NCBI GenBank assembly: GCA_041494445.1
Contig: JBGQAU010000001.1
Location: 24,797 to 88,796, forward strand
DNA from: Acidobacteriota bacterium
Lineage (GTDB): Bacteria > Acidobacteriota > Polarisedimenticolia > Polarisedimenticolales > JAIQFR01
DNA length: 64,000 nucleotides
Direction of reading: 5' to 3'
Below are positions 8,989 to 31,670 of this stretch, piece by piece. Numbering within the stretch: position 1 is the first letter of the stretch; each line of letters begins with the position of its first letter. Under the pieces are notes generated by a model that saw only the letters and a list, made by a program, of their open reading frames with translations, had not been told where the DNA came from and made no database searches. The position numbers and the translations under genes were made by a program.

Positions 8989-9238
8989 CTGCTTTCCCCC
9001 TTGCAGAAGCGAGGTCGCTCCCAGCGGAAAACATCGTGGCTGCGCGGGGTCAAGTCAAGTCGGCGGCCCCCGGGAGCGGCGGGAGGCCACCGGTACCGAA
9101 GTCGAACGGCCCCGGGTGGATGAGCCCGAAGCCTCGACGTATGATGGAGATCGTTCCCGAACGGAGGACCGCGTGGAGACGGACGTTCGCAGGAATCCCG
9201 GCCTGCTCAAGCTGGACCTCTATTGCAGGGGCGTGAGG

Positions 9239-13119: not shown

Positions 13120-14148
13120 ATGCGCAATACGCGTTCCTTCGCCATTCTCCCGCTCGCGGTTTTTTCCGTTTCGTCGGCGATCGGCGCCGTCCCCGCGGTG
13201 ACGCCACGGCGCCCGGTCGCAACGTACTCGATCGTCGCCCGCGACCCGGCCACCGGTGAGATGGGCGTCGCGGTCCAGAGCCATTGGTTCTCGGTCGGCT
13301 CCGTCGTCCCGTGGGCCGAGGCGGGAGTCGGCGCCGTCGCGACGCAATCGTTCGTCGAGCCGTCGTACGGGCCGCTCGGGCTTCGGTCCATGAAGGACGG
13401 AGCCGCGCCCGAGAAGGCGCTCACCGACCTCCTCGCCAGGGACCCGCACCCCGAGGTGCGCCAGGTGGCTTTCGTGGGCGCCGACGGGCGGGTGGCCGCG
13501 CACACCGGCGCGAAGTGCATCCCTGCTGCGGGCCAGAGGATCGGGAAGGGATACTCGGTCCAGGCCAACCTGATGCTGAGCGACGAGGTCCCCGGCGCCA
13601 TGGCGAAGGCCTTCGAGGCGTCGAGCGGTCCGCTCGCGGAACGGATGCTCGCGGCGCTCGAGGCGGCGCAGGCCGTCGGAGGGGACATCCGGGGAAAACA
13701 GTCCGCCGCGATCCTCGTCGTCCGCGCCAAGGCGACCGACAAGCCTTGGACCGACAGGCTCGTGGACCTCCGGGTGGAGGATTCCGAACAGCCTCTCGCC
13801 GAGATCCGGCGGGTCCTCGCCCTGGCCCGCGCGTACGACCTGATGAACCAGGGGGACGAGGCGGTCGCCGCCGGGAGGATGGACGAGGCCCTGGCGAAGT
13901 ACTCGCGCGCCGAGGCGATGTTCCCGGGAAACGACGAGTTCGTGTTCTGGCACGCGGTCACCCTCGTGACCAACGGACGCACCGACGAGGCGCTCCCCGT
14001 GTTCGCGAAGGCGTTCCGGATGAACCCCTCCTGGATGCTCCTGGTGCCTCGCCTGCCCGCGGTGGGACAGCTTCCGGACGCTCCCGGCCTCGTCGAGAAG
14101 ATCCTGGCCACCGGTCCGACCGCGAACTCGGCTCCGAAGGGCCGCTGA
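13120..14148 (+). CDS. Exported DUF1028 (Ntn-hydrolase-like) protein with a TPR-like C-terminal tail
   Basis: AGGAGG Shine-Dalgarno site. A signal peptide is followed by TYSIVARDPATGEMGVAVQS (DUF1028 N-terminal signature). The C-terminus has helical-repeat character. Confidence 0.75.
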   Translation: MRNTRSFAILPLAVFSVSSAIGAVPAVTPRRPVATYSIVARDPATGEMGVAVQSHWFSVGSVVPWAEAGVGAVATQSFVEPSYGPLGLRSMKDGAAPEKALTDLLARDPHPEVRQVAFVGADGRVAAHTGAKCIPAAGQRIGKGYSVQANLMLSDEVPGAMAKAFEASSGPLAERMLAALEAAQAVGGDIRGKQSAAILVVRAKATDKPWTDRLVDLRVEDSEQPLAEIRRVLALARAYDLMNQGDEAVAAGRMDEALAKYSRAEAMFPGNDEFVFWHAVTLVTNGRTDEALPVFAKAFRMNPSWMLLVPRLPAVGQLPDAPGLVEKILATGPTANSAPKGR

Positions 14149-14162
14149 GCCGCCGGCGTCTC

Positions 14163-16617: not shown

Positions 16618-17517
16618 TTGACCTTCCGCCACCCGGCTCCCGCGGAGCACGAGGAGAAGAGCCCCTTGAGCGTGTCCGGGATCGAACCTCGCATCGAGGC
16701 GCGCCAGCGGTTCGCCGCCCTGGTGAGCGGGAAGGACGATTTCGACCTCCTCGAGGCGTGCCTTCTCGTGGCCGCAGAGGAATACCCGCGCCTGGACATC
16801 GGGGCCGAGATCGCCCGTGTGGACGCGCTGGGGCGCGAGGCGCTGCCGAGGGTCGAGCCCCTCGCGAACTTCTTCGCGCGGCTCGACGCGCTCCGCACCT
16901 TCCTCTTCGAGGACCTCGGCTTCCGGGGGAACGCCGAACAGATCGACGACCCCCGCAATTCGTTTCTCAACGAGGTCCTGAACCGGCGCACCGGCATCCC
17001 GATCACCCTCTCGGTCCTCTACGTGGAGGTGGCCCGGCGGGCACGGGTGGACGCCCGCGGCGTGGTCCTTCCCGGTCATTTCGTCGTGCGAGTCGGCGAC
17101 GCGACGCGGGCCACCTTCGTGGACCCGTACCACGGCGGCCACGTGATCACCGAGGACGACTGCCGCGAGCTGTCCGCACGGACCATGGGCCGCGCCTCGC
17201 TCTTCCGCCCCGAGATGCTCCTGGGGGCGAGCTCCGCCACGCTCCTGGCCCGTCTCCTGCAAAACCTCAAGCGGATCTACCTCGCGCGCGAGGACTACCC
17301 GCGCGCGCACGCCGCGGTGGACCGGCTCTTGATCGTCTCGCCGGACGACCACCGCGAGATCCGCGACCGCGGCTTCCTGCACGCTCACCTCGGCCGGACC
17401 GACGCCGCGGTGGCCGACCTCGAGTCCTACCTGAGCCTCGCGCCGCGCGCTCCCGACGCCGAATCCGTCCGCGGCCGCCTCGCCTGGCTCGTCCGCAAGA
17501 CGTCGGAGATCAGTTAG
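16618..17517 (+). CDS. SirB1/UPF0162-like protein (transglutaminase-like N-domain plus TPR-like C-domain)
   Basis: NSFLNEVLNRRTGIPITLSVLYVEVARR...LPGHFVV is typical of this family. The start codon (TTG 16618) is uncertain. Confidence 0.7.
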   Translation: MTFRHPAPAEHEEKSPLSVSGIEPRIEARQRFAALVSGKDDFDLLEACLLVAAEEYPRLDIGAEIARVDALGREALPRVEPLANFFARLDALRTFLFEDLGFRGNAEQIDDPRNSFLNEVLNRRTGIPITLSVLYVEVARRARVDARGVVLPGHFVVRVGDATRATFVDPYHGGHVITEDDCRELSARTMGRASLFRPEMLLGASSATLLARLLQNLKRIYLAREDYPRAHAAVDRLLIVSPDDHREIRDRGFLHAHLGRTDAAVADLESYLSLAPRAPDAESVRGRLAWLVRKTSEIS

Positions 17518-17535
17518 CCCCTGACTCCCCGGGGT

Positions 17536-17564
17536 TTGATCCGTCCTGCGCGATGAGACATAAT
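17536..17564 (+). promoter_or_regulatory. Candidate sigma-70 promoter for korAB
   Basis: TTGATC (17536-17541), a 17-nt spacer, then CATAAT (17559-17564), about 43 nt upstream of the korA ATG in an AT-richer patch. Confidence 0.45.
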
Positions 17565-17606
17565 GGACCTGGTCGGTCCACTATTTGGGATTCGAGAAGG
17601 GAAGCC

Positions 17607-19460
17607 ATGGCCAGCGAGACGACATCCAACGGGACCAAGCCGGGCGTCGAGACGCTGGACCGCGTCGTGATCCGTTTCGCCGGCGACTCCGGCGACGGAA
17701 TGCAGCTCACCGGGACGCAGTTCACCGCGACCGCCGCCATCGTCGGCAACGACCTCGCGACCTTCCCCGACTACCCCGCGGAGATCCGCGCTCCCGCCGG
17801 GACGCTGCCGGGCGTGTCGGGGTACCAGGTCAACTTCGCCTCGGAGGACATTTTCACGCCCGGCGACGCGCCGGACGTGCTGGTGGCGATGAACCCGGCG
17901 GCGCTCAAAGTCAATCTCAAGGACCTCAAGGCGGGTGGGATCCTCGTCGTGAACTCCGACGCGTTCCGGGAGTCCGACCTGGCGAAGGCGGGGTACCAGG
18001 GGAACCCGCTCGAGGACGGCTCCCTCGACGGCTACCGCCTGGTCCGGGTCGAGATGAACCGCCTCACGCGCTCGGCGCTCGAGGGAACCGGGCTGCCGCA
18101 GCGGACGATGGACCGCTCGAAGAACTTCTTCGCCCTCGGGATGATGTACTACCTGTACAACCGGCCTCTCGAGGTCTCCCTGCGGTGGATCGAGGAGAAG
18201 TTCGCCTCAGAGCCGGAGATCGCGGCGGCCAACCGGCTCGCGCTCAAGGCGGGGTACGCGTACTGCGAGGCGAGCGAGATCTTCCACGACACCTACGAGG
18301 TCCCGGCGGCCCGCCTGGCACCGGGCACGTACCGCAACGTGAACGGGAACCAGGCGCTCGCGTTGGGGTTCGTGGCCGCGTCGCGGAAGAGCGGGCTTCC
18401 GCTCTTCCAGGGGTCGTACCCGATCACGCCGGCATCGGACATCCTGCACGAGCTGGCCGCGTACAAGAATTTCGGCGTGATCACGTTCCAGGCGGAGGAC
18501 GAGATCGCGGCGATCGGCGCGGCGCTGGGCGCCTCGTTCGCGGGGTCGCTCGCGATCACGACCACGAGCGGGCCGGGCCTCGCCCTCAAGAGCGAGTTCG
18601 TCGGGCTCGCCGTGATGGTCGAGCTGCCGCTCGTGGTGGTGGACATCCAGCGCGGCGGCCCTTCGACGGGCCTTCCGACCAAGACCGAGCAGGCCGACCT
18701 CCTCCAGGCGCTCCACGGCCGGCACGGCGAGGCCCCGTGCGTGGTGCTGGCCGCCCGCTCCCCCGCCGACTGTTTCGAGTGCGCTTACGAGGCAAGCCGC
18801 CTCGCGGTCCGGCACATGACGCCGGTGCTGCTCCTCTCGGACGGGTTCATCGCGAACGGCGCCGAGCCCTGGCGCATTCCGGCGGTCGAGGATCTCCCGC
18901 CGATCCCGGTCGCCTTCCGCACCGATCCCGAAGGGTTCCTGCCGTACGCCCGCGACCCCGAGACCCTGGCCCGTCCCTGGGCGATACCCGGCACGCCGCG
19001 GCTTGAGCACCGGATCGGGGGGCTCGAGAAGTCGGACGGGGCCGGAAACGTCTCGTACGAGCCGCTGAACCACGAGCGGATGGTCCGCCTGAGGGCCGAG
19101 AAGATCGCGCGGGTCGCCCTCGATATCCCGCCCGCGAGTCCCTCGGGCGACCACGAGGGCGGCTTGCTCGTGGTCGGCTGGGGCTCCACGTACGGTTCGA
19201 TCACCGCGGCGGTCCGCCGCGCCCGCGCGGAGGGAAAGCGCGTGAGCCGTCTCCACCTGCGCTATCTCAATCCGCTCCCCTCGAACCTGGGCGAGGTGCT
19301 CTCACAGTACGACAGGATCCTGGTCCCGGAGATGAACCTGGGCCAGCTCGCGTTCGTGCTCCGTGGCCGGTACCTGAGGGAGATCGTCTCCCAATCGAAA
19401 GTCGAGGGGCAGCCGTTCCGCGAGAGCGAGATCCTCGACCGCATCCGCGAGATCGCGTAG
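17607..19460 (+). CDS. korA: 2-oxoacid (2-oxoglutarate):ferredoxin oxidoreductase, fused gamma/alpha subunit
   Basis: RFAGDSGDGMQLTG, SYPITPASD and TTTSGPGLALK; 617 aa from ATG 17607. The upstream part of the ORF overlaps the previous gene and is junk. Confidence 0.9.
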   Translation: MASETTSNGTKPGVETLDRVVIRFAGDSGDGMQLTGTQFTATAAIVGNDLATFPDYPAEIRAPAGTLPGVSGYQVNFASEDIFTPGDAPDVLVAMNPAALKVNLKDLKAGGILVVNSDAFRESDLAKAGYQGNPLEDGSLDGYRLVRVEMNRLTRSALEGTGLPQRTMDRSKNFFALGMMYYLYNRPLEVSLRWIEEKFASEPEIAAANRLALKAGYAYCEASEIFHDTYEVPAARLAPGTYRNVNGNQALALGFVAASRKSGLPLFQGSYPITPASDILHELAAYKNFGVITFQAEDEIAAIGAALGASFAGSLAITTTSGPGLALKSEFVGLAVMVELPLVVVDIQRGGPSTGLPTKTEQADLLQALHGRHGEAPCVVLAARSPADCFECAYEASRLAVRHMTPVLLLSDGFIANGAEPWRIPAVEDLPPIPVAFRTDPEGFLPYARDPETLARPWAIPGTPRLEHRIGGLEKSDGAGNVSYEPLNHERMVRLRAEKIARVALDIPPASPSGDHEGGLLVVGWGSTYGSITAAVRRARAEGKRVSRLHLRYLNPLPSNLGEVLSQYDRILVPEMNLGQLAFVLRGRYLREIVSQSKVEGQPFRESEILDRIREIA

Positions 19461-19469
19461 GAGGCCGGC

Positions 19470-20483
19470 ATGGGCGCGCCGACGGCTCTGACGAAGAAGG
19501 ACTTCGTTTCCGACCAGGAGGTCCGCTGGTGTCCGGGGTGCGGGGACTACGCGATCCTGAGCGCGGCCCAGCAGGTCTTCCCCGAACTGGGCGTCCCTCG
19601 CGAGAGGTTCGTGGTGGTCTCGGGGATCGGCTGCTCGAGTCGCTTCCCGTACTACATGAACACTTACGGCTTCCACGCCATCCATGGCCGCGCGCCCGCG
19701 ATCGCCACCGGCATCAAGATCGCGAACCCCGACCTTTCGGTCTGGATCGCGACCGGGGACGGCGATGCGCTGTCTATCGGCGGGAACCATGTGATCCACA
19801 CGCTCCGCCGCAACCTCGACATCAAGATCCTGATGTTCAACAACCGGATCTACGGACTGACCAAGGGGCAGCTTTCGCCGACCTCCGAGATGGGTAAGAA
19901 GACGAAGTCGACACCGTACGGCTCCGTCGATCGTCCGTTCAACCCCGTCGCCCTGGCGCTGGGCGCCGACGCGACCTTCGTCGCCCGGAGCGTGGACGTC
20001 AACGCGCCGCACCTCAAGGAGGTGATCCGCGCGGCCGCCGACCATCGGGGCGCCGCGTTCGTCGAGATCCTCCAGAACTGCAACATCTTCAACGACGGCG
20101 CCTGGAGCGAGTTCCGTGAGAAGGATCGGCGGGACGAGCACGTGGTTGAGCTCCGGCAGGGGGAGCCGCTCGTGTTCGGGAAGAGCCGCGATCGGGGGAT
20201 AAGGCTCGCAGGTTGCCACCGGCCGGAAGTCGTGACGCTGGGGAGCGGCGTCACAGAGAAGGACCTGCTCGTGCACGACGAGCAGGCCCCCCTCGGTTAT
20301 GCGTTCATGCTCGCGCACATGCAGCCGCCGGAGTTCCCGCTCCCGATCGGGGTATTCCGCCGTGCCGTGCTTCCGACGCTCGAGGCCGCGATCCACGAGC
20401 AGATCGGCGCCATCACGGCGAAGAAGGGTCCGGGCGACCTCGGGAAGCTGCTGCGCTCGGGCGACGTGTGGGAGGTCAAGTAG
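19470..20483 (+). CDS. korB: 2-oxoacid:ferredoxin oxidoreductase beta (TPP-binding) subunit
   Basis: RWCPGCGDYAIL, GIGCSSRFPYY and ATGDGDALSIGGNH. Confidence 0.9.
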   Translation: MGAPTALTKKDFVSDQEVRWCPGCGDYAILSAAQQVFPELGVPRERFVVVSGIGCSSRFPYYMNTYGFHAIHGRAPAIATGIKIANPDLSVWIATGDGDALSIGGNHVIHTLRRNLDIKILMFNNRIYGLTKGQLSPTSEMGKKTKSTPYGSVDRPFNPVALALGADATFVARSVDVNAPHLKEVIRAAADHRGAAFVEILQNCNIFNDGAWSEFREKDRRDEHVVELRQGEPLVFGKSRDRGIRLAGCHRPEVVTLGSGVTEKDLLVHDEQAPLGYAFMLAHMQPPEFPLPIGVFRRAVLPTLEAAIHEQIGAITAKKGPGDLGKLLRSGDVWEVK

Positions 20484-20515: not shown

Positions 20516-21133
20516 TCACGGCGCCGCGGCTCCGGACGCGCGGACGGAACCTCTCCCGTGCACGATCTCAAAGTCGAAGCGGATGTCCAGGTAGACCGGT
20601 ACCAGCTCCATCGACGTGGCACGTCTGTAGTCGGGCTTGCCGTCCCCGTCGAGATCGTTCCCTTCCTCGGTCCGGAGGAGCACCGCCGGCTCGAACTTCC
20701 AAGCCCCCACCGCGGCCTCCGCGGAGCCCCGGAACTCGTCGGCGAACGGGCCCTCCATCTCGGGAACCAGCGGGCTGGGGCCGATGGTCTCGACATCTCC
20801 CCTGGGGCCGACAACGAAGCGCAGTCCGGCGTGGCCGCCGGCGCCGGCGGCCAGCGCGACGGCGGGGTACTCCGGCATTCGGTTATCGCTCCTCGGCTCC
20901 GGAGGACGGAGTTCGGTGTCGGCCGGCAAGGCGAGGGCAGGGTTCTTCGGATCGAACACGAACCTCGAGGTCGCCCGTCCGCGGAGGTCGGGGACGGTCG
21001 GTCGAGCCCCGGCATCCCCGCGGGAGCGCCCCCGGGCCGCGCAACCTGAGTCGAGCGACACGACGAGCAGCAAGGAAGCGAGCGGCGCGGCGGCGCGTGA
21101 GAAGCAGCGGGGATGCCAAGAGCGGGGTCGCAT
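20516..21133 (-). CDS. TonB C-terminal-domain protein, probable exported or lipoprotein
   Basis: N-terminal signal with SLDSGC. The TonB_C-like segment MPEYPAVALAAGAGGHAGLRFVVGPRGDV...AWKFEP carries a DGDGKPD insertion. Confidence 0.6.
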   Translation of the reverse strand: MRPRSWHPRCFSRAAAPLASLLLVVSLDSGCAARGRSRGDAGARPTVPDLRGRATSRFVFDPKNPALALPADTELRPPEPRSDNRMPEYPAVALAAGAGGHAGLRFVVGPRGDVETIGPSPLVPEMEGPFADEFRGSAEAAVGAWKFEPAVLLRTEEGNDLDGDGKPDYRRATSMELVPVYLDIRFDFEIVHGRGSVRASGAAAP

Positions 21134-21137
21134 GGCC

Positions 21138-22082
21138 TCAGCTCAGCGTGAACTCGATCTGGATCGTGAAGTAGATCGGCACCGCTCGGCCGTCGAAGCG
21201 GGCCGGCTCGTAGCGCCACTGCTGCACCGCCTCCACCGAAGCGGCGGCGAGATCCTCGCAGCCAGGCGGCACGCGCAGCACCTGCACCGCCCGTGGAACC
21301 CCCTCGGTGTCGATCACCGCTTGCAGCAGGATCCGGCCGCTCCTCTTTTCCTTGCGGGCCGTTTTCGGGTACACCGGGTCGACCTTGCGAATCCGATTGG
21401 GCGGCTCGACGCGGAGGTCCCCGGTAAGGACCTCGATCTTCTGCACCCGCTCCAGCCGCTCCCTCACCGCTTCCGAATCCATAGGCGTCACGGCAACGAC
21501 GATCCACTCCCCGTCGATCGGCGACGGGGCCGCGATCGCCACCGTCCGCTCGCTTCCGGCCAGTAGGCGCGCCTCGGCCAGAGGCTGCCCCTTCCCGCCG
21601 GGGCCGTCGATCGTCAGGGAGATCTCGTGGATGCGGTCGGGACCCGCGGGCGCTTCGGCCAAGAATCGCAGCTCGGCCCAGGTCTGCCCCGGGTAGATCG
21701 TCCCTTCGAATCGCGCCTCGCCGCTAGAGTCGGGGCTGACGATGAAGCCGGTCACCGCTTCGGCCCGTTCTCCACCCAACACTCGCGCGAGCGCATCAAT
21801 CTGCCCGGGCGTTCCCCAGGCCTCCTCGTCGGGCAGGACGATCGGCGTCCCGCAGAACTTCGCGCATCCGTACCCCACGCCGCGCGGCGAGGCGGTTCCC
21901 GCGACCCGCACCACGCGCAGGTGGTACGCGAAGCGCGTGGGGTCTTGGCTCCCTCCCGCCCCCGTCGGGGGCGCGCCCGTCGTCCCCTGTCGTTCCGACG
22001 CCCCGAGCCCGACCCCGGCCGCCAGCGCGATCCCGGTGACCGTCAGCCATGCGATGCCCGCGACCTTCGCCACCTTTCTCAT
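21138..22082 (-). CDS. Membrane-anchored protein with a TonB C-terminal domain
   Basis: The N-terminal TM helix is followed by an unknown central domain. The C-terminus VDPVYPKTARKEKRSGRILLQAVIDTEGVPRAVQVL...WRYEPARFDGRAVP is a clear TonB_C fold signature. Confidence 0.7.
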   Translation of the reverse strand: MRKVAKVAGIAWLTVTGIALAAGVGLGASERQGTTGAPPTGAGGSQDPTRFAYHLRVVRVAGTASPRGVGYGCAKFCGTPIVLPDEEAWGTPGQIDALARVLGGERAEAVTGFIVSPDSSGEARFEGTIYPGQTWAELRFLAEAPAGPDRIHEISLTIDGPGGKGQPLAEARLLAGSERTVAIAAPSPIDGEWIVVAVTPMDSEAVRERLERVQKIEVLTGDLRVEPPNRIRKVDPVYPKTARKEKRSGRILLQAVIDTEGVPRAVQVLRVPPGCEDLAAASVEAVQQWRYEPARFDGRAVPIYFTIQIEFTLS

Positions 22083-22417
22083 CGGATGCCCCCCTCCGAA
22101 CGCGGCTCGGGCGTCGCGCCCGGGACCGCGACGACCACGATCGATCCGGCCGCCGGCGAGTCGATCACCCTGACCCGAGCGTCGCGGCCTCCGAGACGCA
22201 ACGCGAGCACTTCGACGGGCGCGCGCGGGTGCTGCGGCACCTCCCGGGGAAGCAAGAAGCGTCCCGCGACGAGCACCGCCACGAGAGCCGCCGCCGCCGC
22301 GAGCCCCCAGACGATGGGTCGCGCCGCCTTCGGCCGCCGCCGGGGCGGAGGCAGCGAGGCGGCGACCTCCGTCACGACTTCCCTGAGCAGCCCGATTCCG
22401 TCCCGCTCTTCGTTCAT
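22079..22417 (-). CDS. Small single-pass membrane protein, positional anti-sigma factor candidate
   Basis: 112 aa from ATG 22417 (MNEERDGIGLL...), one TM helix (IVWGLAAAAALVAVLVAG). It has 4-nt overlaps with both neighbours. No HxxxCxxC zinc anti-sigma motif is present. Confidence 0.5.
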   Translation of the reverse strand: MNEERDGIGLLREVVTEVAASLPPPRRRPKAARPIVWGLAAAAALVAVLVAGRFLLPREVPQHPRAPVEVLALRLGGRDARVRVIDSPAAGSIVVVAVPGATPEPRSEGGIR

Positions 22418-23004
22418 CGACGTGCCTCCAACGGCGGCCGGACCTCGAGGGCGGCGCGGGCGAGGCGAGCGCGGGCGTCCCGCGCGATGGACCGCACGCC
22501 TCCCGCCGTGATACCGAGCAACCGGCCCGTGTCCTCGGCCGTGAGCTCGCCGATCTCGTAGAGCGCGATCACCTCGCGCTGCCCCTCGGTGAGTGCACCG
22601 AGGAGTCGAGTCAGCGTGAGCCGCGCCTCGACGGCGTCCATCGGCCGCGGCCTCGCACCCCACCGGATCAGGACGCCGAAGCGCTCGGCCAGTCTCCGGC
22701 GACGCCGCTCCGCGCGAAACGAGTTCCTTGCCCGCCGGACGAGGGACGTGGAGAGCCACGCCTCGATGGTCCCCTTCCCCGGATCGAACGATTCCAGCCG
22801 CCGGTGCGCAGCGAAGAGCGCGTCCTGAACGAGGTCCGGCACGTCGTCCGGCGGGATGCCGATCGCCAGCGCGACTCGCGAGAGGCGCGGCCGCAACGCC
22901 GCCCAGAGCCGATCCGCCGCCCCGGCGTCGCCCTGCCTCGCCCGGAGCGCGAGGGCCGTGAGATCCTCTTTTTTCGGACCCGGCAGGTCGTTGCTCGGTG
23001 CCAT
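22414..23004 (-). CDS. ECF-type RNA polymerase sigma-70 family factor
   Basis: Region 2 is DLVQDALFAAHRRLESFDPGKGTIEAWL and region 4 is LTEGQREVIALYEIGELTAEDTGRLLGITAGGVRS. The start was chosen at ATG 23004 (MAPSNDL). Confidence 0.85.
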   Translation of the reverse strand: MAPSNDLPGPKKEDLTALALRARQGDAGAADRLWAALRPRLSRVALAIGIPPDDVPDLVQDALFAAHRRLESFDPGKGTIEAWLSTSLVRRARNSFRAERRRRRLAERFGVLIRWGARPRPMDAVEARLTLTRLLGALTEGQREVIALYEIGELTAEDTGRLLGITAGGVRSIARDARARLARAALEVRPPLEARR

Positions 23005-23137
23005 TGCCGCCTCCGAGCGGGCCGCCCATCCCCGCCGCCTCGATCCTTCATACACCGGAACCGGGGGAAACGTGCGGGGTCGCCGTCGTCCTCCGGAACG
23101 GTGATATGTTTCGGCACCCCCAACGGAGGCCGGACAC

Positions 23138-25378
23138 ATGACCATCCGCCCCCTTCCCCGCCGCCTCGCGGTCCTCGCCGGGGCTCTTGCTCTCTCCGCG
23201 GTCCTCGCGACCGCCCGCGGCGCATCATCGACCGCGCCTCACCCCGCCGACCCTCTCGACGACGCGCTCGCATCGGCTGGAATCCCGCCCGGCCGGCTCG
23301 GATTCGAGCCCGAGGGGACGTGGCTCCGATACCCGGACCCGCGGCAGGTGCCGTACGTCAACCGGATGTTCTCCGACCTGTTCGCGCATCCGGACAGGAT
23401 CGACGACACGCTCCGGCTGATGGCGCAAGCGGCGCGCGACTTCCTGTCGCCCGCCTACCGCACCGCCAAGGACGACGGGCTGTTCCGCGCCGCGTACTTC
23501 ACCGGCTGGGACCTCAGGCTCTCGGGGCACCGCGAGTACACGGCGGCGCTCGACGACAAGGCTCCCGCGGGTCCCGGCGCCGAGGACCCGCTCGTTTTCG
23601 CGGTGGAGCGGCTCTACCGCGACCTGGGCCTCCCCTTCGACCTCGTCCGCCTCGACAAACCGGCCGACTTCCCGCGCCACCGGGAGGACGCGAGGACGGC
23701 GGCGGCGAAGCTCGATCCCGAGCTTCGGGCCATCGTCGCCCAGGCGGTGCTCGACCTCGCCGACGCGCTCCGATGGCACCGGATCGCCTTCGCGAAGGTC
23801 GACGGGAAGGACATGATCGCGGTCGCGAAGCTCCGGGACCTGGGCGCGACGCAGTTCGACGGGATGGAGTACCACCCGGAGTGCGACCGAGTCGCGCGCG
23901 ACCTGGACGAGCGGGCGCTGAACACCTCGTCTCGCAAGGTCGTCGCGGCGGGCGAGCGGCTCGTGAAATCGCTCCAGGCGTGGGTGGCGGCGACCAAGGC
24001 GGATCTCGCGACGCAGCACTTCGACCTCGTCACCCCCGCGGGGCGGATCGTGGTGTCCGGGTCCGGGAACGACACTCACGAGGAGCCGGACCTCCTGCTC
24101 CTCGTGGACCTCGGCGGGGACGACGTGTACCGGGGCGGAATCGGGGGCAACACGCCTACGCAATCGGTCACGCTGGCCGTGGATCTCGCGGGGAACGACC
24201 GCTACCTCGCGGAGGACGAGCGCTCGAACGCCCAGGGGAGCGGGATTCTCGGCACCGGCGTCCTGATCGACGCGGCCGGCGACGACGTTTACCGGGCATA
24301 TGGCTCGTCGCAAGGATACGGCCTCTTCGGCACCGGGCTCCTCGCCGATCTCGCCGGCAACGACCGTTACGAGCTGACCGTGGAAGGCCAGGGGGCGGCG
24401 GAGTTCGGCGTCGGGCTGCTCTTCGATCTCGCGGGGAGCGACTCGTACCGGATCGTGAGCGGGGGCCAGGGGTTCGGCGGCGTGGGGAACGGCATCGGGA
24501 CGCTGGTGGACCTCGGCGGGAACGACTCCTACTTCGCGGAGCCGGACTCGTCGAAGGCGTACCGTCCCGACGACCACTCGCAGCTCAAGGTCAACTACTC
24601 GTACGCGCAGGGTGCGGCCGCGGGAAGGCGCGGTGACCTCGAGGACGGCCACTCGTGGGCGGGCGGCGTCGGCACGCTGATCGATCTCGGCGGGAACGAC
24701 ACCTATCGCTCCGGGAACTGGTCGGCGGGCTCGGGGTACTGGTACGGGATCGGCTGGCTCTACGACGCGTCGGGCGACGATCTCTACAGCGCGTCGGTTT
24801 TCTCCCTCGCCTCCGGCGCGCACTTCTGCATCGGGGCGCTGATCGACGAGCGAGGGAACGACCGGTACGAGGGGTACGGCGACTCGCACACCGGCATGGC
24901 CTTCGGGCACGACTTCACGATAGCGCTCCTCTACGACGGCGCCGGGAACGACGTCTACCGCTACGGCGCCGACGGCTTCGGGTACGCGATCAACATGAGC
25001 CTCGCGATGCTCGTGGACGCGGGAGGCGACGACACGTACGTCCTCGACCGCGGGAAGGAAGGGTTCGGGGTCACGAACTTCACCGCGGCGGATCTCACGC
25101 CCAACGTGACCCGGAACTATCTCGCCTGGCCGGTCGAGGTCGGGCTCTTCCTCGACGCCGGCGGGAAAGACCGGTATCTGGAGCGCGATCCCGCGACCGG
25201 ACAGGAAGCCCCTTCGGCCGCGCGAAAGGACGGCGTGCGCATCCTGAGGCCCGCCTCCCCCGCTCGCGATGCGGACGGCCGGTACGCCGGGATCTTCTTC
25301 GACCGGCCCGGCGCGTCCCCGCGGCCGATCGATTGGTTCCGCTTCCGCTGGTCGCCGATGCCTGCGCCGGCCCAGTGA
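23138..25378 (+). CDS. Secreted 746-aa protein with 12 DxxGxDxY repeats (beta-solenoid-like?), function unknown
   Basis: Signal peptide MTIRPLPRRLAVLAGALALSAVLATARG, a non-repeat N-domain of about 300 aa, then the repeat region (next feature). Confidence 0.75.
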   Translation: MTIRPLPRRLAVLAGALALSAVLATARGASSTAPHPADPLDDALASAGIPPGRLGFEPEGTWLRYPDPRQVPYVNRMFSDLFAHPDRIDDTLRLMAQAARDFLSPAYRTAKDDGLFRAAYFTGWDLRLSGHREYTAALDDKAPAGPGAEDPLVFAVERLYRDLGLPFDLVRLDKPADFPRHREDARTAAAKLDPELRAIVAQAVLDLADALRWHRIAFAKVDGKDMIAVAKLRDLGATQFDGMEYHPECDRVARDLDERALNTSSRKVVAAGERLVKSLQAWVAATKADLATQHFDLVTPAGRIVVSGSGNDTHEEPDLLLLVDLGGDDVYRGGIGGNTPTQSVTLAVDLAGNDRYLAEDERSNAQGSGILGTGVLIDAAGDDVYRAYGSSQGYGLFGTGLLADLAGNDRYELTVEGQGAAEFGVGLLFDLAGSDSYRIVSGGQGFGGVGNGIGTLVDLGGNDSYFAEPDSSKAYRPDDHSQLKVNYSYAQGAAAGRRGDLEDGHSWAGGVGTLIDLGGNDTYRSGNWSAGSGYWYGIGWLYDASGDDLYSASVFSLASGAHFCIGALIDERGNDRYEGYGDSHTGMAFGHDFTIALLYDGAGNDVYRYGADGFGYAINMSLAMLVDAGGDDTYVLDRGKEGFGVTNFTAADLTPNVTRNYLAWPVEVGLFLDAGGKDRYLERDPATGQEAPSAARKDGVRILRPASPARDADGRYAGIFFDRPGASPRPIDWFRFRWSPMPAPAQ
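24050..25192 (+). repeat. In-frame tandem protein repeats with a period of about 25-30 aa and signature (L/I)xDxxGxDxY
   Basis: The copies are DLGGDDVY, DLAGNDRY, DAAGDDVY, DLAGNDRY, DLAGSDSY, DLGGNDSY, DLGGNDTY, DASGDDLY, DERGNDRY, DGAGNDVY, DAGGDDTY and DAGGKDRY, at aa 324, 349, 378, 404, 430, 458, 516, 543, 570, 600, 627 and 673. Confidence 0.85.
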
Positions 25379-25387
25379 TCCGCGAGA

Positions 25388-27046
25388 TCAGTTGCCTGCG
25401 GCCGGGCGGGCGTGGGCGAACTCGTCGCCGGGCCGCCACTCCGGACGGTGGTCCGCCTGGGCGACCGCGTAGCCGACCAGGAACCCCAGACGGGCGTCCT
25501 CCACCATGCCGTCCCAGTTCCAAGTCGGGTCGATCTGGTCGCTGGGCTGGTGGTAGTGAGCGTCACGCCAGGCGTCGCCGGTCTCTTTCCCCCACCCCGG
25601 CGGGCGGCCGATGTAGTCGAGGCCCGAGGAGAAGTAGAGCGACGGGATCCCCGCCTTGGCGAACGAGAACTGGTCGGAGCGGTAGAACGCGCCGCGGTCC
25701 GGGAACGCCTCGTCCGTGACCACCCGACCCTGAAGCCCGGCGACCGCGTCGAGGATCGGGTCCAGGTCGGACTTGCCGCGGCCGACCTCGGAGACGTCGC
25801 GGGTCTTCCCGAAGATGTTCCCGGAGTCGAAGTTGATGTCGGCCAGCAAGTGGTCGTTGGGCACGGTCGGGTGGGTGGCGAAGTAGTGGGAGCCGAGCAG
25901 GTTCGACTCCTCTCCGCTCACGAACAGGAAGAGGATCGACCGCCGTGGGGGCTCCGCAAGCGCGGCAAAGCCCCGGGCGATGGCCAGGACCATGGCGACG
26001 CCCGACGCGTTGTCACGCGCGCCGTTGTAGATGCGGTCACCCGTCGCGTCGGGCTTGCCCACACCGAGATGATCGTGATGCGCGGAGAAGACGACGACCT
26101 CGTCGCGGAGCTTCGGGTCGGTGCCCCGGAGCACTCCCATTACGTTGCTCGTCTCGGCCCGGGTGACGTCGTTGGCGATCGTCAACGAGGTACGGATCCC
26201 CAGCGGGATCGGGCGGAAATCGCGCGAGCGGGCCTTCGCGACCAGTGCGTCGAAGTCGAAGCCGGCTGCCTGCAGGACCTTGCGCGTCGCGGCTTCGGTC
26301 GTCCAGGCCTTGACCTCGATCGTGGGCTCGCCGCCGTTGGGGAGCTCGTACTGCTCGCCCGTCCAGGAGTTCCGGACCACCGGCCATCCGTACCCGGCGG
26401 AGGGTATCGTGTGGATGACGATCGCCCCCGCGGCTCCGCGACGCGCCGCCTCCTCGTACTTGTACGTCCAGCGCCCGTAGTACAGCCGCCGCTTGCCGGC
26501 GAACAGCCCATCGTCCCAGTCCGGATCGTTGTTGAGGATCACCAGAACCTTGCCCCGGACATCCACGTCCTTGAAGTCGTCCCACCGGTACTCGGGCGCG
26601 GTGATGCCGTAGCCGACGAAGACGAGCTCGGCGTCGCCGAGCACCGAGCTCGGCGCCTGCCTGCCGGTGGCGGCGATGAAATCGTCCCAGAACCTCAAGA
26701 ACACTCGGCCGCCCTTGGTGCCGAAGCTCCACTCCTCCGGCACGTGCGAGGTCAGTCCGACGACCTCGAACCTCTGCTCCCAGCCGCCGTCCGGCCCCGC
26801 CGGCTCGAGGCCGAGGGACTCCATGGTACTCGCCAGGAACGCCACCGCGAGCACGTCGCCGGGCTTCGAGGTCGCCCGACCCTCCAGAAGGTCGTTGGAC
26901 AGGAATCGCGTCGGCCCGGAGATCGCGTCAGCCGTCACGGCCTTCGAGGCCGCGAGCGCCTGGGGCGACACAGGGGCCGGCAGGGCGTGTGCGGTCGCAG
27001 CCCCCGTCACGGCAAGGCCGAGTACCAACGCTGTCAGCCTGGTCAT
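25388..27046 (-). CDS. M28 family aminopeptidase with a PA domain, secreted
   Basis: Signal peptide MTRLTALVLGLAVTGAATAHA. Zn-ligand motifs are SAHHDHLG, ARDNASG and FVSGEESNLLGS. GGAGGA precedes ATG 27046, so the ORF-track start 27061 is probably too long. Confidence 0.85.
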   Translation of the reverse strand: MTRLTALVLGLAVTGAATAHALPAPVSPQALAASKAVTADAISGPTRFLSNDLLEGRATSKPGDVLAVAFLASTMESLGLEPAGPDGGWEQRFEVVGLTSHVPEEWSFGTKGGRVFLRFWDDFIAATGRQAPSSVLGDAELVFVGYGITAPEYRWDDFKDVDVRGKVLVILNNDPDWDDGLFAGKRRLYYGRWTYKYEEAARRGAAGAIVIHTIPSAGYGWPVVRNSWTGEQYELPNGGEPTIEVKAWTTEAATRKVLQAAGFDFDALVAKARSRDFRPIPLGIRTSLTIANDVTRAETSNVMGVLRGTDPKLRDEVVVFSAHHDHLGVGKPDATGDRIYNGARDNASGVAMVLAIARGFAALAEPPRRSILFLFVSGEESNLLGSHYFATHPTVPNDHLLADINFDSGNIFGKTRDVSEVGRGKSDLDPILDAVAGLQGRVVTDEAFPDRGAFYRSDQFSFAKAGIPSLYFSSGLDYIGRPPGWGKETGDAWRDAHYHQPSDQIDPTWNWDGMVEDARLGFLVGYAVAQADHRPEWRPGDEFAHARPAAGN

Positions 27047-27128
27047 CAGGACGTCCTCCACGCTCGGAAAGATGGAACTGCGCTGTCCCCAGGTTTCCCG
27101 CCGGGCGCCTGTGCTGGACGGTCCGAGC

Positions 27129-28394
27129 TCAGGCGTACAGCCCGCGAAGCTCCGCGGCGCGCGCGACGCGCTGGATCGCGACGATGAACGCGGCGATCCG
27201 CATATTCGTCGCGTGCTCGACGCTCGCGGCCAGGACCGCGTCGAACGCCTCGACCATGTAGCGCTCGAGCTCCCGGGCCACCCGTTCCTCCTGCCAATAG
27301 TACCCCTGCCGGTTCTGCACCCACTCGAAGTAGGAGACGGTGACGCCGCCCGCGTTGCAAAGGATGTCGGGGATCAGGAACGTCCTCCTCTTCGAGAGGA
27401 TCGCGTCGGCATCGTAGGTGGTCGGGCCGTTGGCGCACTCGGCGATCACCCGCGCCTTGATGCGCGAGGCGTTCTCGCCGGTGATCTGGGTCTCGAGCGC
27501 CGCCGGGACCAGGACGTCCACGTCCATCTCGAGGAGCTTCATCGGGTCGTCGAGGTGCCTGACCTTGAGCGCGCGCTCGAGCCCCGCGAGCCCTCTGTGC
27601 TCCGCGTTGTGGCGGAACGCCGACTCGATGTCGATCCCCGCCTCGTTCACGAAGGCGCCGTTCACGTCGGAGATCCCCACGACGCGGAAGCCGAGATCGA
27701 CGAGGAGCTTCGCGGCCCACGATCCGACGTTCCCGAACCCCTGGATCGCCACGCGGGCCCTGCCCGGGTGGATCCCGAGATGCTTGCACGCCTCCCGCAC
27801 GCAGAACACCATCCCCTGCGCCGTCGCCGACTCGCGCCCCTTCGATCCACCCAGGTCGAGGGGCTTGCCCGTGACCACGCCCGGCAGGTACCCCTGCGCG
27901 TGCATCGAGAGCGTGTCCATGATCCACGCCATGATCTGGGCGTTGGTGTTCACGTCCGGCGCCGGGACGTCCCGGTCCACCCCGAACAGGTCCTCCAGCT
28001 CGGCGGCGTATCGCCTCGTCAGCCGCTCCAGCTCGCCCAGGGAGAGCTTCGACGGGTCCACGATGATGCCGCCCTTCCCGCCGCCGAACGGGATGTTCAC
28101 CACCGCGCACTTGTAGGTCATCCAGAACGCGAGCGCCTTGACCTCCTCCACGGTCACCGCGGGGTGGTACCTCAGGCCTCCCTTCGCCGGCCCGCGGGCC
28201 ATGCTGTGCTGCACCCGGTAGGCGGTGAAGATCTCGATCCGGCCGTCGTCCATCCGGACGGGGAGCTTGACCTCCGTCACCCGGCGCGGCTGCTTGATCA
28301 TGGCGACCTGGTTCGGCGTCAGATGGAGCACCCGGGCCGCCTCGTCGAACTGCTTGAACGCGTTCTCGAGCGCGTTGACGTTGTCCTTCTCCAT
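27129..28394 (-). CDS. gdhA: Glutamate dehydrogenase
   Basis: PAKGGLRYHP, FGGGKGG and the dinucleotide fold IQGFGNVG; 421 aa from ATG 28394, which has a GGGAGGA Shine-Dalgarno site. Confidence 0.9.
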   Translation of the reverse strand: MEKDNVNALENAFKQFDEAARVLHLTPNQVAMIKQPRRVTEVKLPVRMDDGRIEIFTAYRVQHSMARGPAKGGLRYHPAVTVEEVKALAFWMTYKCAVVNIPFGGGKGGIIVDPSKLSLGELERLTRRYAAELEDLFGVDRDVPAPDVNTNAQIMAWIMDTLSMHAQGYLPGVVTGKPLDLGGSKGRESATAQGMVFCVREACKHLGIHPGRARVAIQGFGNVGSWAAKLLVDLGFRVVGISDVNGAFVNEAGIDIESAFRHNAEHRGLAGLERALKVRHLDDPMKLLEMDVDVLVPAALETQITGENASRIKARVIAECANGPTTYDADAILSKRRTFLIPDILCNAGGVTVSYFEWVQNRQGYYWQEERVARELERYMVEAFDAVLAASVEHATNMRIAAFIVAIQRVARAAELRGLYA

Positions 28395-28524
28395 GGGGTC
28401 CTCCCGTCTCGGCCGGCGGAGCATGGTAGCGCGTCTCCCGGTCCTCGGCCGCTCGCACCCGCCATGCGCGGCTTCCGAGGGTTGGATACACTGTGGCGAG
28501 ATTCGGGTGTTTGCGGAGGAGAGG

Positions 28525-29445
28525 ATGAAGAACGCCGTCGTCGCCCATTCGGTCGGGCTCGCGCTCGCGATCGTCTCGTCGCTGTGCACGGGCCGGGCGG
28601 CGTCCGCGGGTCTGTGCGGCGGTGACGATCGCGTGCGGCTCGTCGAAGGCGCCTCCTTCGACACCGGGACCGCCAGATTGTCGCCCGATCAGGTCGCAGC
28701 TCTGCGACTCGCGGTCTACGCGCTGCGTCCCAAGATCGGGCTGGGCGTGGGCCCGGCCTGCACGGGGACGGCGATCTCCGAAAAGCTCATGCTGACCGCG
28801 GGGCACTGCGTGATCAAGGGCGGGATGAAGGCCTATCAGAAGCACCTCCGGCCGCGGCCCAAGCCGGTGGACCTCAAGCTCGTCTATCGCGTCTTCGACA
28901 AGCTGACGGGCGCCGATCTGGCCCTGTACGCCCGGAAGTCCGGGACGTTCCGCGACTACCTCCCCGTCGACCCGGGGTTCGGCTTCGATGCCGTGGAGCC
29001 CGGCGACCGCTTCGGGTTTCCCGCGTTTCCGTACAAGAAGTGGAACGTCTTCTCCTGGCCGCAGAAGAAGCTCCTGTTCTCGCCCGTATCGCAATCGGCG
29101 GTCGAGGATGAGGACGTGTGGTTCGGCGTGCAGCCCTGCCACGACGATCCCGCGGGAGAGCGTGGTGACGCCGGTACCACCCCGGAGCGGGCCGCCGAGA
29201 AGACCGCGGGCGGCGGGGACTTCCCTTGGTGCCGCGTGTTCTCCTGCGCAGACTTCTTCGACGGGAACAGCGGCTCGCCGATGCTGCGCTTCCACCTCGA
29301 GAACGGCGCCGAAACGATCTCGGTGATCGCGGTGGGCACGGTGAGCGTCAAGGGGAACGCACCGGACCGGTCGTTGAGCGCCGGTGCGGTGCCGGTCGCC
29401 CTGCTCCGGGACGTGCTCCCCGGGTTCCTGGCGCCGTCGAGGTAG
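28525..29445 (+). CDS. Secreted trypsin-like (S1) serine protease
   Basis: GGAGGAG Shine-Dalgarno site and a signal peptide. The catalytic His is in LTAGHC and the Ser in DGNSGSP. Confidence 0.75.
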   Translation: MKNAVVAHSVGLALAIVSSLCTGRAASAGLCGGDDRVRLVEGASFDTGTARLSPDQVAALRLAVYALRPKIGLGVGPACTGTAISEKLMLTAGHCVIKGGMKAYQKHLRPRPKPVDLKLVYRVFDKLTGADLALYARKSGTFRDYLPVDPGFGFDAVEPGDRFGFPAFPYKKWNVFSWPQKKLLFSPVSQSAVEDEDVWFGVQPCHDDPAGERGDAGTTPERAAEKTAGGGDFPWCRVFSCADFFDGNSGSPMLRFHLENGAETISVIAVGTVSVKGNAPDRSLSAGAVPVALLRDVLPGFLAPSR

Positions 29446-29573: not shown

Positions 29574-31670
29574 ATGGCAGCGAACGACCCGAAGCGAGGC
29601 GAGGGCGAGACCCGCCGCCTCCATCCTGCGGCTTATCGCGAGCTCGAGCCCGGCGAGACCTACGAGCCGTTCGTGCCTTCCGGCGCCGCGGTGCCGGAGT
29701 TCACGTTCCGCTCGGTCTTCACCGGGATCGTGATGGTCCTGATCTTCTCGGTGGCCGCGACCTACTCGGGGCTCAAGGTCGCCCAGGTGTTCGAGGCGGC
29801 GATCCCGATCTCGATCCTGGCCGTGGGCCTGTCGGGTCTCTTCCGCAGGCGCAACTCGATCCTCGAGAACGTGATCATCCAGAGCATCGGGGGCGCGTCG
29901 GGGCTCATCGTGGCCGGCTCGATCTTCACGCTTCCGGCGCTCTACATCATGAACGTCGCGCCGGGAGCCGGGAGGATGCTCCTGACGGTGTTCGTGGTCG
30001 CGGTCCTGGGCTCTTCCCTCGGCCTCCTGTTCCTGATCCCTCTCCGGCGCTATTTCGTCGCCGAGCAGCACGGGAAGCTGCCGTTCCCCGAGGCGACGGC
30101 GATCAACGAGGTCTATATCACGGGGGAAGCCGGCGGCGAGCAGGCGAGAACGCTGCTCCTCGCGGCGGGTGTGGGCGGGATCTACGACTTCCTCGCCACC
30201 TCGGTCCGGGCGTGGTCCGAGATCGTGAACTTCCAGTTCCTGCCGTTCATGAAGAACCTGGCGGACAAGTACAAGGCCGCGGTCAGCGTGAACGCGGTCG
30301 CGATGATCGTCGGGCTCGGCTACATCACCGGCCTAAGGTACTCGGCGATCATCTGCGCCGGGGGCCTGTTCTCGAACCTGATCATGGTCCCGCTGATCTA
30401 CCACTTCGGCCAGTACGTCCCCTCGATCTCCATTCCGCCGGCGCCCCTGCCCGGCGTTCCCGGGTTCATCGCGGACATGAGCGCCGGGAACATCTTCCGG
30501 CTTTACGCCCAGCGGGTCGGCGTCGGGGCCATGGCGGGCGCCGGCATCATCGGGATCCTGAAGGCGCTCCCCACCATCGCCAGCGCGTTCTCGCTGGGAT
30601 TCAAGCAGATCTTCCGCCCGCACGCCCACGCCCAGGAGGTCAGGCGCACCGACCGCGATCTCAAGATGAGCACGGTGATGGGCGGGATCGTGGCCGCGAC
30701 GCTCGCCGTCGGCGTGTTCTTCCTCGTGCTCCTGCGCCAGGACCCGGTCGCCGCCGGGAAGGCGCCTCAGATCGCGCTGACCGGCCTCGTGATCGCGTTC
30801 GTGTTCTCTTTCCTGTTCACCACCGTGGCCGCCCTGGCGACGGCCATGACCGGCAACAACCCGATCTCGGGCATGACCCTGGTCACGCTGATCATCGGCT
30901 CGACGGCCCTGGTCTCGGTCGGGCTCCAGGGCGAGTACGGGAAGTTCGCAGCGATCGTGATGGGCGCCGTGGTCTGCTCCGCCCTGGCGATGAGCGGCGG
31001 GTTCGTCACCGACCTCAAGGTCGGCTACTGGCTCGGCTCGACCCCGAGGTACCAGCAGATCTCCAAGGTGATCGGCACGCTGTTCGCCGCGGTCGGCGTC
31101 GCCCTGACCGTGCTCCTGATCCACCGCGCGTTCGGCAGGACGGACGCCGCCACGGGGCAGTTCGTCTCCGGCTTCATGAACACGCAAGTGGTGCCGGCGC
31201 CGCAGGCGAACCTGTTCGCCACGATCCTCTCCGGCATCTTCGACAAGCAGCCGGTGACCTGGCTCCTCTACAGCGTGGGCCTCGTGCTCGCGGTGCTCCT
31301 CGAGATGATGAAGATCCCGCCGCTGGCGTTCGCCATCGGGATGTACCTGCCGCTGCAGGTCAACACGCCGCTGTTCATCGGCGGCGTCGTCTCGCACTGG
31401 GTCGGGAAGAGCAGCAAGGACCCGAAGGTGTCCGAGGCGCGGTCCCAGCGCGGCACGCTCCTCGCCAGCGGGTTCATCGCCGGCGGCGCGATCATGGGTG
31501 TCGTCGGCGCGCTCCTGGTCATCGGCAAGGAGTACCTCTCGTTCCTGAACGTGGACCTCGGCGTGCCCGACAAGAGCGACACGCTGGGGCAGATCGTGAG
31601 CATCGTGATGTTCACCGGGCTGTGCCTCTTCCTCTACTTCGACTCGAGGCGCGCCAAGCCGCCGGCGTAG
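29574..31670 (+). CDS. OPT family oligopeptide transporter
   Basis: 698 aa, polytopic. The N-terminal pattern is EFTFRSVFTGIVMVLIFSVAATYSGLKV, with Gly-rich helices typical of OPT throughout. Confidence 0.85.
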   Translation: MAANDPKRGEGETRRLHPAAYRELEPGETYEPFVPSGAAVPEFTFRSVFTGIVMVLIFSVAATYSGLKVAQVFEAAIPISILAVGLSGLFRRRNSILENVIIQSIGGASGLIVAGSIFTLPALYIMNVAPGAGRMLLTVFVVAVLGSSLGLLFLIPLRRYFVAEQHGKLPFPEATAINEVYITGEAGGEQARTLLLAAGVGGIYDFLATSVRAWSEIVNFQFLPFMKNLADKYKAAVSVNAVAMIVGLGYITGLRYSAIICAGGLFSNLIMVPLIYHFGQYVPSISIPPAPLPGVPGFIADMSAGNIFRLYAQRVGVGAMAGAGIIGILKALPTIASAFSLGFKQIFRPHAHAQEVRRTDRDLKMSTVMGGIVAATLAVGVFFLVLLRQDPVAAGKAPQIALTGLVIAFVFSFLFTTVAALATAMTGNNPISGMTLVTLIIGSTALVSVGLQGEYGKFAAIVMGAVVCSALAMSGGFVTDLKVGYWLGSTPRYQQISKVIGTLFAAVGVALTVLLIHRAFGRTDAATGQFVSGFMNTQVVPAPQANLFATILSGIFDKQPVTWLLYSVGLVLAVLLEMMKIPPLAFAIGMYLPLQVNTPLFIGGVVSHWVGKSSKDPKVSEARSQRGTLLASGFIAGGAIMGVVGALLVIGKEYLSFLNVDLGVPDKSDTLGQIVSIVMFTGLCLFLYFDSRRAKPPA

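Follow-up and report, generated by a model that had tools for sequence, protein, structure and literature searches.

What kind of protein carries the same short Asp-Gly motif twelve times in its C-terminal half, and what might such an array be for? The question is raised by an open reading frame (ORF) of 746 amino acids (aa) in a 64,000-nucleotide stretch of DNA from an Acidobacteriota bacterium (NCBI GenBank assembly GCA_041494445.1, contig JBGQAU010000001.1, positions 24,797 to 88,796 of the forward strand; this whole stretch is called the window below, and nucleotide positions are counted from its first letter). A preliminary description of the window had noted the repeat and suggested a secreted beta-solenoid with acidic, possibly Ca2+-binding turns. 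Here we examine the repeat, its predicted fold, its family and its gene neighbourhoods. The reading towards which we lean, with moderate confidence, is that of an exported, probably periplasmic two-domain protein in which a one-sided ladder of Ca2+-binding arcs would stiffen a wide beta-roll, and this roll would carry a conserved site for ligand binding or catalysis.

Scanning the protein with the pattern D..G.D.[YVFL] returned 12 copies, starting at residues 324, 349, 378, 404, 430, 458, 516, 543, 570, 600, 627 and 673, compared with a mean of 0.001 copies and a maximum of 1 over 2000 rounds of shuffling the same protein. A hidden Markov model (HMM) built from the repeat unit also gave 12 significant matches, with E from 1e-10 to 1e-12 and confined to the C-terminal half. 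The earlier count of twelve therefore holds for this looser pattern, whereas the exact pattern given with it, D-[LAGE]-[GAS]-G-[DNSK]-D-x-Y, yields 11; the twelfth copy is DERGNDRY at residue 570, with R at its third position. Neighbouring copies lie 25-30 residues apart, with exceptions of 58 residues (458 to 516) and 46 residues (627 to 673), matching the double-length and 46-residue gaps that had been described, and the region originally assigned to the array (24050-25192, or residues 305-685) contains all 12 copies, from the first D at nucleotide 24107 to the end of the last Y at 25177. Unit statistics across the family give the unit as QGxGxxGxGxLx-D-x-x-G-[DN]-D-x-Y followed by 5-9 variable residues. 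With positions counted from the first Asp of the acidic arc, D(0), 81% of units have Asp or Asn at +4. The Gly-rich turns that had been placed after the motif are found elsewhere: QGxGxxGxG instead opens each coil, upstream of the hydrophobic strand. The invariant DLEDGHSW (residues 500-507) was considered as a degenerate thirteenth arc and rejected, as it lies 16 residues ahead of the next arc and out of register.

Two AlphaFold2 models lend support to the suggestion of a beta-solenoid, with predicted strands that repeat in register with the motif. The full-length model (46-sequence alignment) reached a predicted local distance difference test score (pLDDT) of 91.2 and a predicted TM-score (pTM) of 0.91, and the model of the solenoid alone (58 sequences; pLDDT 93.0, pTM 0.91) showed the same pattern. 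At full length, a helix at residues 8-29, corresponding to the signal peptide, is followed by an all-helical region to about residue 285 and then by short strands in a regular array up to residue 722. The canonical coil comprises a strand of 2 residues, a strand of 6 whose last residue is D(0), a turn of 5 (x-x-G-[DN]-D), a strand of 4-8 residues starting x-Y, and a short G-Q-G turn, and this S1(2)-S2(6)-arc(5)-S3(4-8) pattern recurs in both models. From this pattern the predicted solenoid appears to be a broad, flat roll, one edge of which is lined by the stacked acidic arcs. Foldseek searches against the PDB and the viral BFVD returned nothing at E<=0.001 for either model. The highest TM-score for both went to 3p4g, region IV (RIV) of the ice-binding adhesin MpIBP of Marinomonas primoryensis, at a non-significant level (TMt 0.45, TMq 0.21-0.32, E 0.64-7.4, probability <=0.38), and the other weak rows were generic solenoids (LpxD, TibA, Ag43, tailspikes, curli CsgA, RTX domains and fucoidan lyase). 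A left-handed beta-helix of the hexapeptide type was rejected: the period is 26-27 residues versus 18, no Hexapep Pfam family matched, and LpxD (6p83) scored only E 1.4 with a TM-score of 0.12-0.14.

Neither domain could be assigned to a described family. Searches of the query found no Pfam or NCBIfam family at E<=10 and no match in PHROGs or PADLOC, and in 63 divergent members (27-33% identity to the query) no Pfam match at E<=0.05 touched either domain. Against PDB sequences, phmmer and three profiles (the whole-family alignment A1, the single-unit alignment A2 and the broader alignment A3) returned only noise, such as a carbohydrate-binding module (5klc, E 1.1) and an albicidin resistance protein (E 0.9). 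The plasmid and phage collections held no homolog, and none of the papers in the literature collection searched uses the motif. Together with the absence of a significant Foldseek match, these results agree with the earlier remark that the repeat belongs to no family that could be named. A scan of about 1 Mb of homolog loci together with the window found no copy of the repeat unit beyond this family, and a three-coil profile matched only unannotated fragments of 94-140 aa, which are uninformative on other architectures.

The family is large, unannotated and, among the loci retrieved, found so far only in metagenome-assembled genomes (MAGs). A word-indexed search gave 1683 homologs among the candidates scored; those listed are 420-950 aa long, mostly 700-800, and all names among them are "hypothetical". 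An exhaustive search of representatives at 50% identity gave 3503 at E<=1e-3, with 1552 at E<=1e-30. In contigs from one genome per species, at least 246 loci encode a relative, and all 80 of the 80 loci retrieved are from MAGs. Those from Acidobacteriota/Terriglobia show 76-86% identity, which makes this group the probable origin of the window, and the family spans at least 10 bacterial phyla at 27-50% identity, the loci including some assigned to Acidobacteriota/Terriglobia, Eisenbacteria, Zixibacteria, Ignavibacteria, Calditrichaeota, Latescibacterota, Planctomycetota/Phycisphaerae, Lentisphaerae, Armatimonadetes, Aminicenantes and Bacteroidetes. Record titles name groundwater, lake sediment, fen and marine water as sampled habitats, with no obvious link to the cold. 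Two single members are longer at the C-terminus: P0247 (1017 aa) has an extra metallo-beta-lactamase and PDZ region, and P0254 (846 aa) has extra HEAT repeats; these could be genuine fusions that hint at function, or gene-calling run-ons.

Across this breadth the solenoid keeps a fixed architecture. G(+3) and D(+5) are retained in all 46 aligned members in each of the 12 coils (552/552 cells), with D(+5) never replaced, not even by N or E, while at D(0) some coils also accept N, E or S; the solenoid domain varies in length only from 393 to 431 aa. Since every coil is orthologous across phyla, the solenoid looks like a fixed scaffold, not an extensible array. The invariant non-motif residues of the solenoid are concentrated in residues 476-592, a segment that begins within insertion 1 (see table below). 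In alignment A1 the invariant residues of this insertion are R476, H480, Q491, G492, the stretch G496-R497-R498-G499-D500, and D503. Next to it, conserved non-motif residues occupy equivalent coil positions in coils 7-10 (G504, H505, W507, W528, Y534, W535, A561, H562, D592). Even in the divergent alignments A3 and A4, at 27-33% identity, Q491, G492, R498, Y534, W535, H562 and D592 are conserved in at least 90% of sequences. A rigid scaffold bearing a site for binding or catalysis accounts for this pattern better than an expandable array of the adhesin type does, and a set of Arg, His, Asp, Gln, Tyr and Trp would, as speculation, suit an anionic carbohydrate. G-R-R-G-D (residues 496-500, window 24623..24637), among the most conserved non-motif residues, holds an RGD tripeptide, which in environmental bacteria is probably coincidental.

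The start codon of the 746-aa protein is supported by a GGAGG 8 nt upstream. A Sec-type signal peptide is plausible because a positively charged n-region is followed by the hydrophobic stretch LAVLAGALALSAVLA, and a hydrophobic h-region lies within the first 40 residues in 196 of the 204 full-length family members, 22 of the 204 having lipobox-like sequences that give them the look of lipoproteins. Past the last arc, tails are 33-107 aa long across the family; no sorting-domain Pfam match was recorded, and no Pfam domain was found for any of the 120 homologs listed. In the domain-only model, confidence at the C-terminus is low, with blocks of 52-53 and one segment below 50. From the signal-peptide-like N-termini, the short tails and the lack of a sorting-domain match, we read the protein as exported and most likely periplasmic, the periplasm being the simplest location. 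The N-terminal 300 residues or so had been called non-repetitive and unassigned, and they stay so: the region is predicted to be helical, the unit HMM finds no copy in it, Pfam gave no match, and PDB sequence profiles gave only noise (DnaK-lid, designed helical bundles). It is conserved nonetheless, with W62, P66, F78, P85, R132, A155 and D257 invariant in alignment A1.

Do the arcs bind metal? The solenoid is 17.6% Gly and 11% Asp, with a net charge of about -34 in this protein and -14 to -52 across the family, compared with -19 to +8 for the N-terminal domain; twelve Ca2+ ions would cancel the 24 carboxylates of the arcs. Because D(+5) is absolutely conserved and the solenoid is so strongly negative, we infer that the acidic arcs probably bind Ca2+. 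The obvious point of comparison is the RTX nonapeptide XUXGGXGXD, whose Asp bridges Ca2+ ions buried in the turns (PMC6891781). In the strict sense the present repeat is not that nonapeptide, as had been stated, for there is no GGxGxDxUx and there are no tandem 9-residue arcs; yet the arc is closer to RTX than this statement implied. The two align segment by segment, xLx|DxxGxD|xYx with xUx|GGxGxD|xUx, at equal segment lengths and with G-[DN]-D-x-U in common, and both have stacked acidic turns in a beta-solenoid, an acidic, Gly-rich domain and extracytoplasmic folding.

The differences from RTX are nonetheless numerous. Each coil of 26-27 residues has one arc, versus two per 18 residues in RTX, and arcs lie 25-30 residues apart, with no two G-x-D-x-U arcs at a distance of 9. 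The first RTX glycine (G1) is here an invariant Asp and the second (G2) is variable. PF00353 (HemolysinCabind) was unmatched both in the query (E<=10) and in the 63 divergent members (E<=0.05), and copy number is fixed here, with coil-by-coil orthology. RTX proteins leave by type I secretion, directed by a C-terminal signal that is not cleaved off, and lack an N-terminal signal peptide (PMC6891781), whereas the present protein starts with a Sec signal; neighbour clustering of 81 loci found no type I secretion genes conserved near the homologs. A second point of comparison is MpIBP RIV, whose 12-13 coils of 19 residues form an unbroken roll, with one RTX-like repeat per coil and Ca2+ on one side (PMC3492233, PMC6891781). 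Both are continuous solenoids, and as each has only a single RTX-like turn per coil, the metal row would lie on one edge. In MpIBP RIV, however, the period is 19 residues instead of 26-27, the turn xGTGND has one more residue between the acidic positions than the arc described here, and the region is part of a 1.5-MDa type-I-secreted adhesin; no ice-binding Thr/Asx array is evident in our protein. A mode of action like that of the RTX or MpIBP rolls is plausible, yet repeat pattern, profile search and secretion type set the protein apart from RTX, and coil length sets it apart from MpIBP RIV. The theme of an acidic-turn beta-solenoid is known; the 26-27-residue coil with one arc, its combination with Sec export, and the set of 12 arcs are new.

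Combining these observations, we chart the following model. Once exported by Sec, the protein would form a broad, flat beta-solenoid from its C-terminal 430 residues, with 26-27 residues to the coil. In each coil a Gly-rich pair of strands (QGxGxxGxGxLx) would lead into the six-residue acidic arc D-x-x-G-[DN]-D, from which a strand starting x-Y-x would run back. The 12 arcs would stack on one edge of the solenoid; their 24 aspartates may line up as a ladder of Ca2+ sites, which would offset the charge of the domain and make it rigid in the way that the GGxGxD turns do in RTX beta-rolls and in the one-sided 19-residue Marinomonas beta-roll. On this scaffold the 38-40-residue insertion and coils 7-10 would display a near-invariant polar and aromatic cluster (R476, H480, Q491, R497, R498, D500, D503, H505, W507, W528, Y534, W535, H562, D592) as the working site, at which a ligand would be bound or a reaction catalysed; an acidic polysaccharide or another anionic polymer might, speculatively, be the substrate.

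Several points weigh against this model. The AlphaFold2 models are metal-free. With D in place of the RTX glycine G1, and a variable, often hydrophobic residue in place of G2, the turn may adopt a conformation other than that of RTX, and the Foldseek similarity to any Ca2+ beta-roll is non-significant (E 0.64-9.4). The idea of a functional site comes from conservation, gene neighbourhoods point to no substrate or pathway, and the neighbours in the window deal with peptides and amino acids, not polysaccharides.

The same facts about the turns bear on the alternative that the arcs are metal-free, their Asp capping backbone amides of the same or neighbouring coils like the Asn/Asp ladders of other beta-helices, with the negative charge serving solubility or the binding of a cationic ligand. 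The loss of Gly at G1 and G2, the unmatched Pfam HemolysinCabind and the non-significant similarity to Ca2+ beta-rolls all fit such an arrangement. We consider it unlikely, for N, S and T can also cap turns and yet D(+5) is never any of these in 552 cells, 24 stacked carboxylates would repel strongly if they lacked counter-ions, and the G-[DN]-D-x-aromatic half of the arc corresponds to the metal-ligating half of the RTX turn (PMC6891781). The protein might instead be a very divergent right-handed parallel beta-helix enzyme, a glycoside hydrolase or polysaccharide lyase that escapes the HMM libraries and whose acidic arcs are a lineage-specific decoration. Enzymes of this fold (pectate lyase, PL6 and GH28 types) build their sites from loops on the flank, and some use Ca2+ with Arg or Lys; they share with the present protein the character of exported solenoids with coils of comparable length. 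A period of 26-27 residues with up to three strands per coil is near the range familiar for that fold, the conserved Arg/His/Tyr/Trp/Gln/Asp cluster resembles carbohydrate-active sites, and tailspikes and fucoidan lyase occur among the weak Foldseek rows. Those rows, however, have E>2 and TM<=0.2 and rank below 3p4g; judging by the domain-only model, canonical coils look two-sheeted; neither a ladder of acidic arcs nor QG/GxG-rich strands characterise that superfamily; and no glycan-utilisation genes are conserved nearby. Nor was there a match to Beta_helix, NosD or Pectate_lyase in the query (E<=10) or in the 63 divergent members (E<=0.05), although the search tool did detect families of this group (Beta_helix PF13229, NosD PF05048, pectate lyases) in neighbours at homolog loci. 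On this evidence the beta-helix enzyme is less likely still.

Quite improbable, in our view, is a structural protein of the surface or matrix (an adhesin, or an ice- or mineral-binding protein) whose flat repetitive face is the functional part, as in Marinomonas region IV. The solenoid is regular and may be metal-bound, and its top structural neighbour, at a non-significant level, is MpAFP/MpIBP RIV. Unlike adhesin arrays, it has a copy number and individual coils that are fixed across phyla; its conserved residues form a localised cluster instead of a repetitive face; it has a Sec signal peptide where RTX adhesins have a C-terminal type I signal (PMC6891781); no anchoring or sorting domain was matched; and it occurs in many phyla and varied habitats without an obvious cold link. 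Returning to the Ca2+-stiffened roll with a conserved site, a bolder version, to which we give little credence as a whole, would make the members of the family periplasmic enzymes of a class not recognised before, dependent on Ca2+ and built on a wide, one-sided beta-roll that is itself new, for example lyases or hydrolases of acidic polymers. Their active site would comprise R498, H562, D592, Y534, W535, Q491 and neighbours, formed by the fixed insertion on the flank of the solenoid, and they would be spread over uncultured Acidobacteriota and bacteria of the FCB and PVC groups.

Several thousand sequence clusters here lack a Pfam or NCBIfam entry and a detectable solved relative, and their description would close a gap in the annotation of many MAGs, making the family a solid candidate for a new family or domain of unknown function (DUF) entry. 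If the arcs bind as proposed, a 26-27-residue, one-arc, Sec-exported coil would add a third geometry to Ca2+-type beta-rolls, beside those of 18 (RTX) and 19 (MpIBP) residues. Should the cluster be catalytic, it would mark an enzyme family new to science in lineages that are prized as polymer degraders, and a regular, probably metal-switchable scaffold could interest protein designers. The result has no bearing on a long-standing open question and holds no surprise of principle.

Table. Features of the gene, its protein and the surrounding region, in window coordinates.
Feature	Position	Strand	Basis or remark
Gene for the 746-aa protein, stop codon included	23138..25378	+	ORF list; full-length homologs at 27-89% identity
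Shine-Dalgarno-like GGAGG	23125..23129	+	8 nt before ATG, read in the sequence
Sec-type signal peptide, residues ~1-28	23138..23221	+	N-terminus MTIRPLPRRLAVLAGALALSAVLATARG
N-terminal all-helical domain, residues ~38-290, conserved	23249..24007	+	AlphaFold2 secondary structure
Beta-solenoid, residues 296-722, period 26-27 residues, 12 arc-bearing coils (predicted)	24023..25303	+	AlphaFold2, unit statistics
Array of 12 arcs D-x-x-G-[DN]-D-x-Y, 24 nt each	24107..25177	+	Pattern scan
First D codons, arcs 1-6	24107, 24182, 24269, 24347, 24425, 24509	+	Pattern scan
First D codons, arcs 7-12	24683, 24764, 24845, 24935, 25016, 25154	+	Pattern scan
Insertion 1, residues 466-503, cause of the 58-residue gap	24533..24646	+	38-40 aa in 46/46 members
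Coils 7-10, candidate functional surface with insertion 1	24647..24913	+	Register map of conservation
Insertion 2, residues 635-660, short helices, cause of the 46-residue gap	25040..25117	+	AlphaFold2; 24-30 aa in 46 members
C-terminal tail, residues 723-746, no sorting domain	25304..25375	+	Low AlphaFold2 confidence
Shadow ORF over the gene, 561 aa	23225..24910	-	
Shadow ORF over the gene, 610 aa	22804..24636	+	
Shadow ORF over the gene, 354 aa	24655..25719	+	
Divergent four-gene block: extracytoplasmic function (ECF)-type sigma factor (Sigma70_r2/r4), 315-aa ORF, two TonB_C proteins	20516..23145	-	
Exported M28-family peptidase, convergent with the gene	25388..27061	-	Weak, below-cut-off PA-domain match
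Penicillin amidase-family gene (peptide/amino-acid scavenging)	13284..16508		
2-oxoacid:ferredoxin oxidoreductase, 900-aa ORF	16758..19457	+	POR, POR_N, PFOR_II
Thiamine pyrophosphate (TPP)-binding beta subunit	19470..20483	+	Follows the 900-aa oxidoreductase ORF
Glutamate dehydrogenase (peptide/amino-acid scavenging)	27129..28664		
OPT oligopeptide transporter (peptide/amino-acid scavenging)	29574..31670		
Gamma-glutamyltranspeptidase (peptide/amino-acid scavenging)	31700..33427		

Three contig look-ups and all-against-all clustering of neighbours in the 81 loci found no conserved gene partner. The clustering recovers as conserved only the gene itself and its antisense shadows, which cluster across loci by BLAST (74 and 8 loci) owing to conservation of the gene on the sense strand; the clusters that come next are of generic kinds (secreted proteins with type IX secretion system (T9SS)/FlgD tails, ATP-binding cassette (ABC) ATPases and response regulators). 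A function based on an operon, and a link to the adjacent ECF sigma and TonB_C genes, were rejected for want of a conserved partner. Synteny with the window occurs only in two Terriglobia MAGs and excludes those adjacent genes, so that the ECF sigma/TonB_C block is not common to even the closest Terriglobia relatives of the gene. In 8 loci, six of which bear the label Zixibacteria/Zixiibacteriota or unclassified bacterium, a nitroreductase-family gene lies upstream of the homolog; in most of them it is the immediate neighbour, in opposite orientation. This linkage is lineage-specific synteny, absent elsewhere. The loci concerned are L021, L027, L031, L032, L033, L037, L038 and L041, one of them from Ignavibacteria, and L002 also has such a gene at 9146-9931.

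Within the window, the neighbours encode RNase E/G, a penicillin amidase, a 2-oxoacid:ferredoxin oxidoreductase, two TonB_C proteins, an ECF sigma factor, an M28 peptidase, a glutamate dehydrogenase, an OPT transporter and a gamma-glutamyltranspeptidase. The gap of 9 nt between the stop codons of the 746-aa gene and the M28 peptidase holds no terminator-like hairpin. In the divergent block, the likely true start of the ECF sigma factor is an ATG near 23007 with a GGAGG of its own, and the 315-aa ORF, which has no Pfam match, overlaps the sigma-factor ORF in a different frame and might either encode an anti-sigma factor or be a spurious product of high GC. G+C makes up about 70% of the window; the shadow ORFs that run over the 746-aa gene in other frames are typical of such DNA and could be mis-called as genes. 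The scavenging genes and the M28 peptidase suggest a proteolytic lifestyle, and in other genomes these genes are unlinked to the family described here. The 2-oxoacid:ferredoxin oxidoreductase pair suggests an anaerobic or microaerobic metabolism of the source organism.

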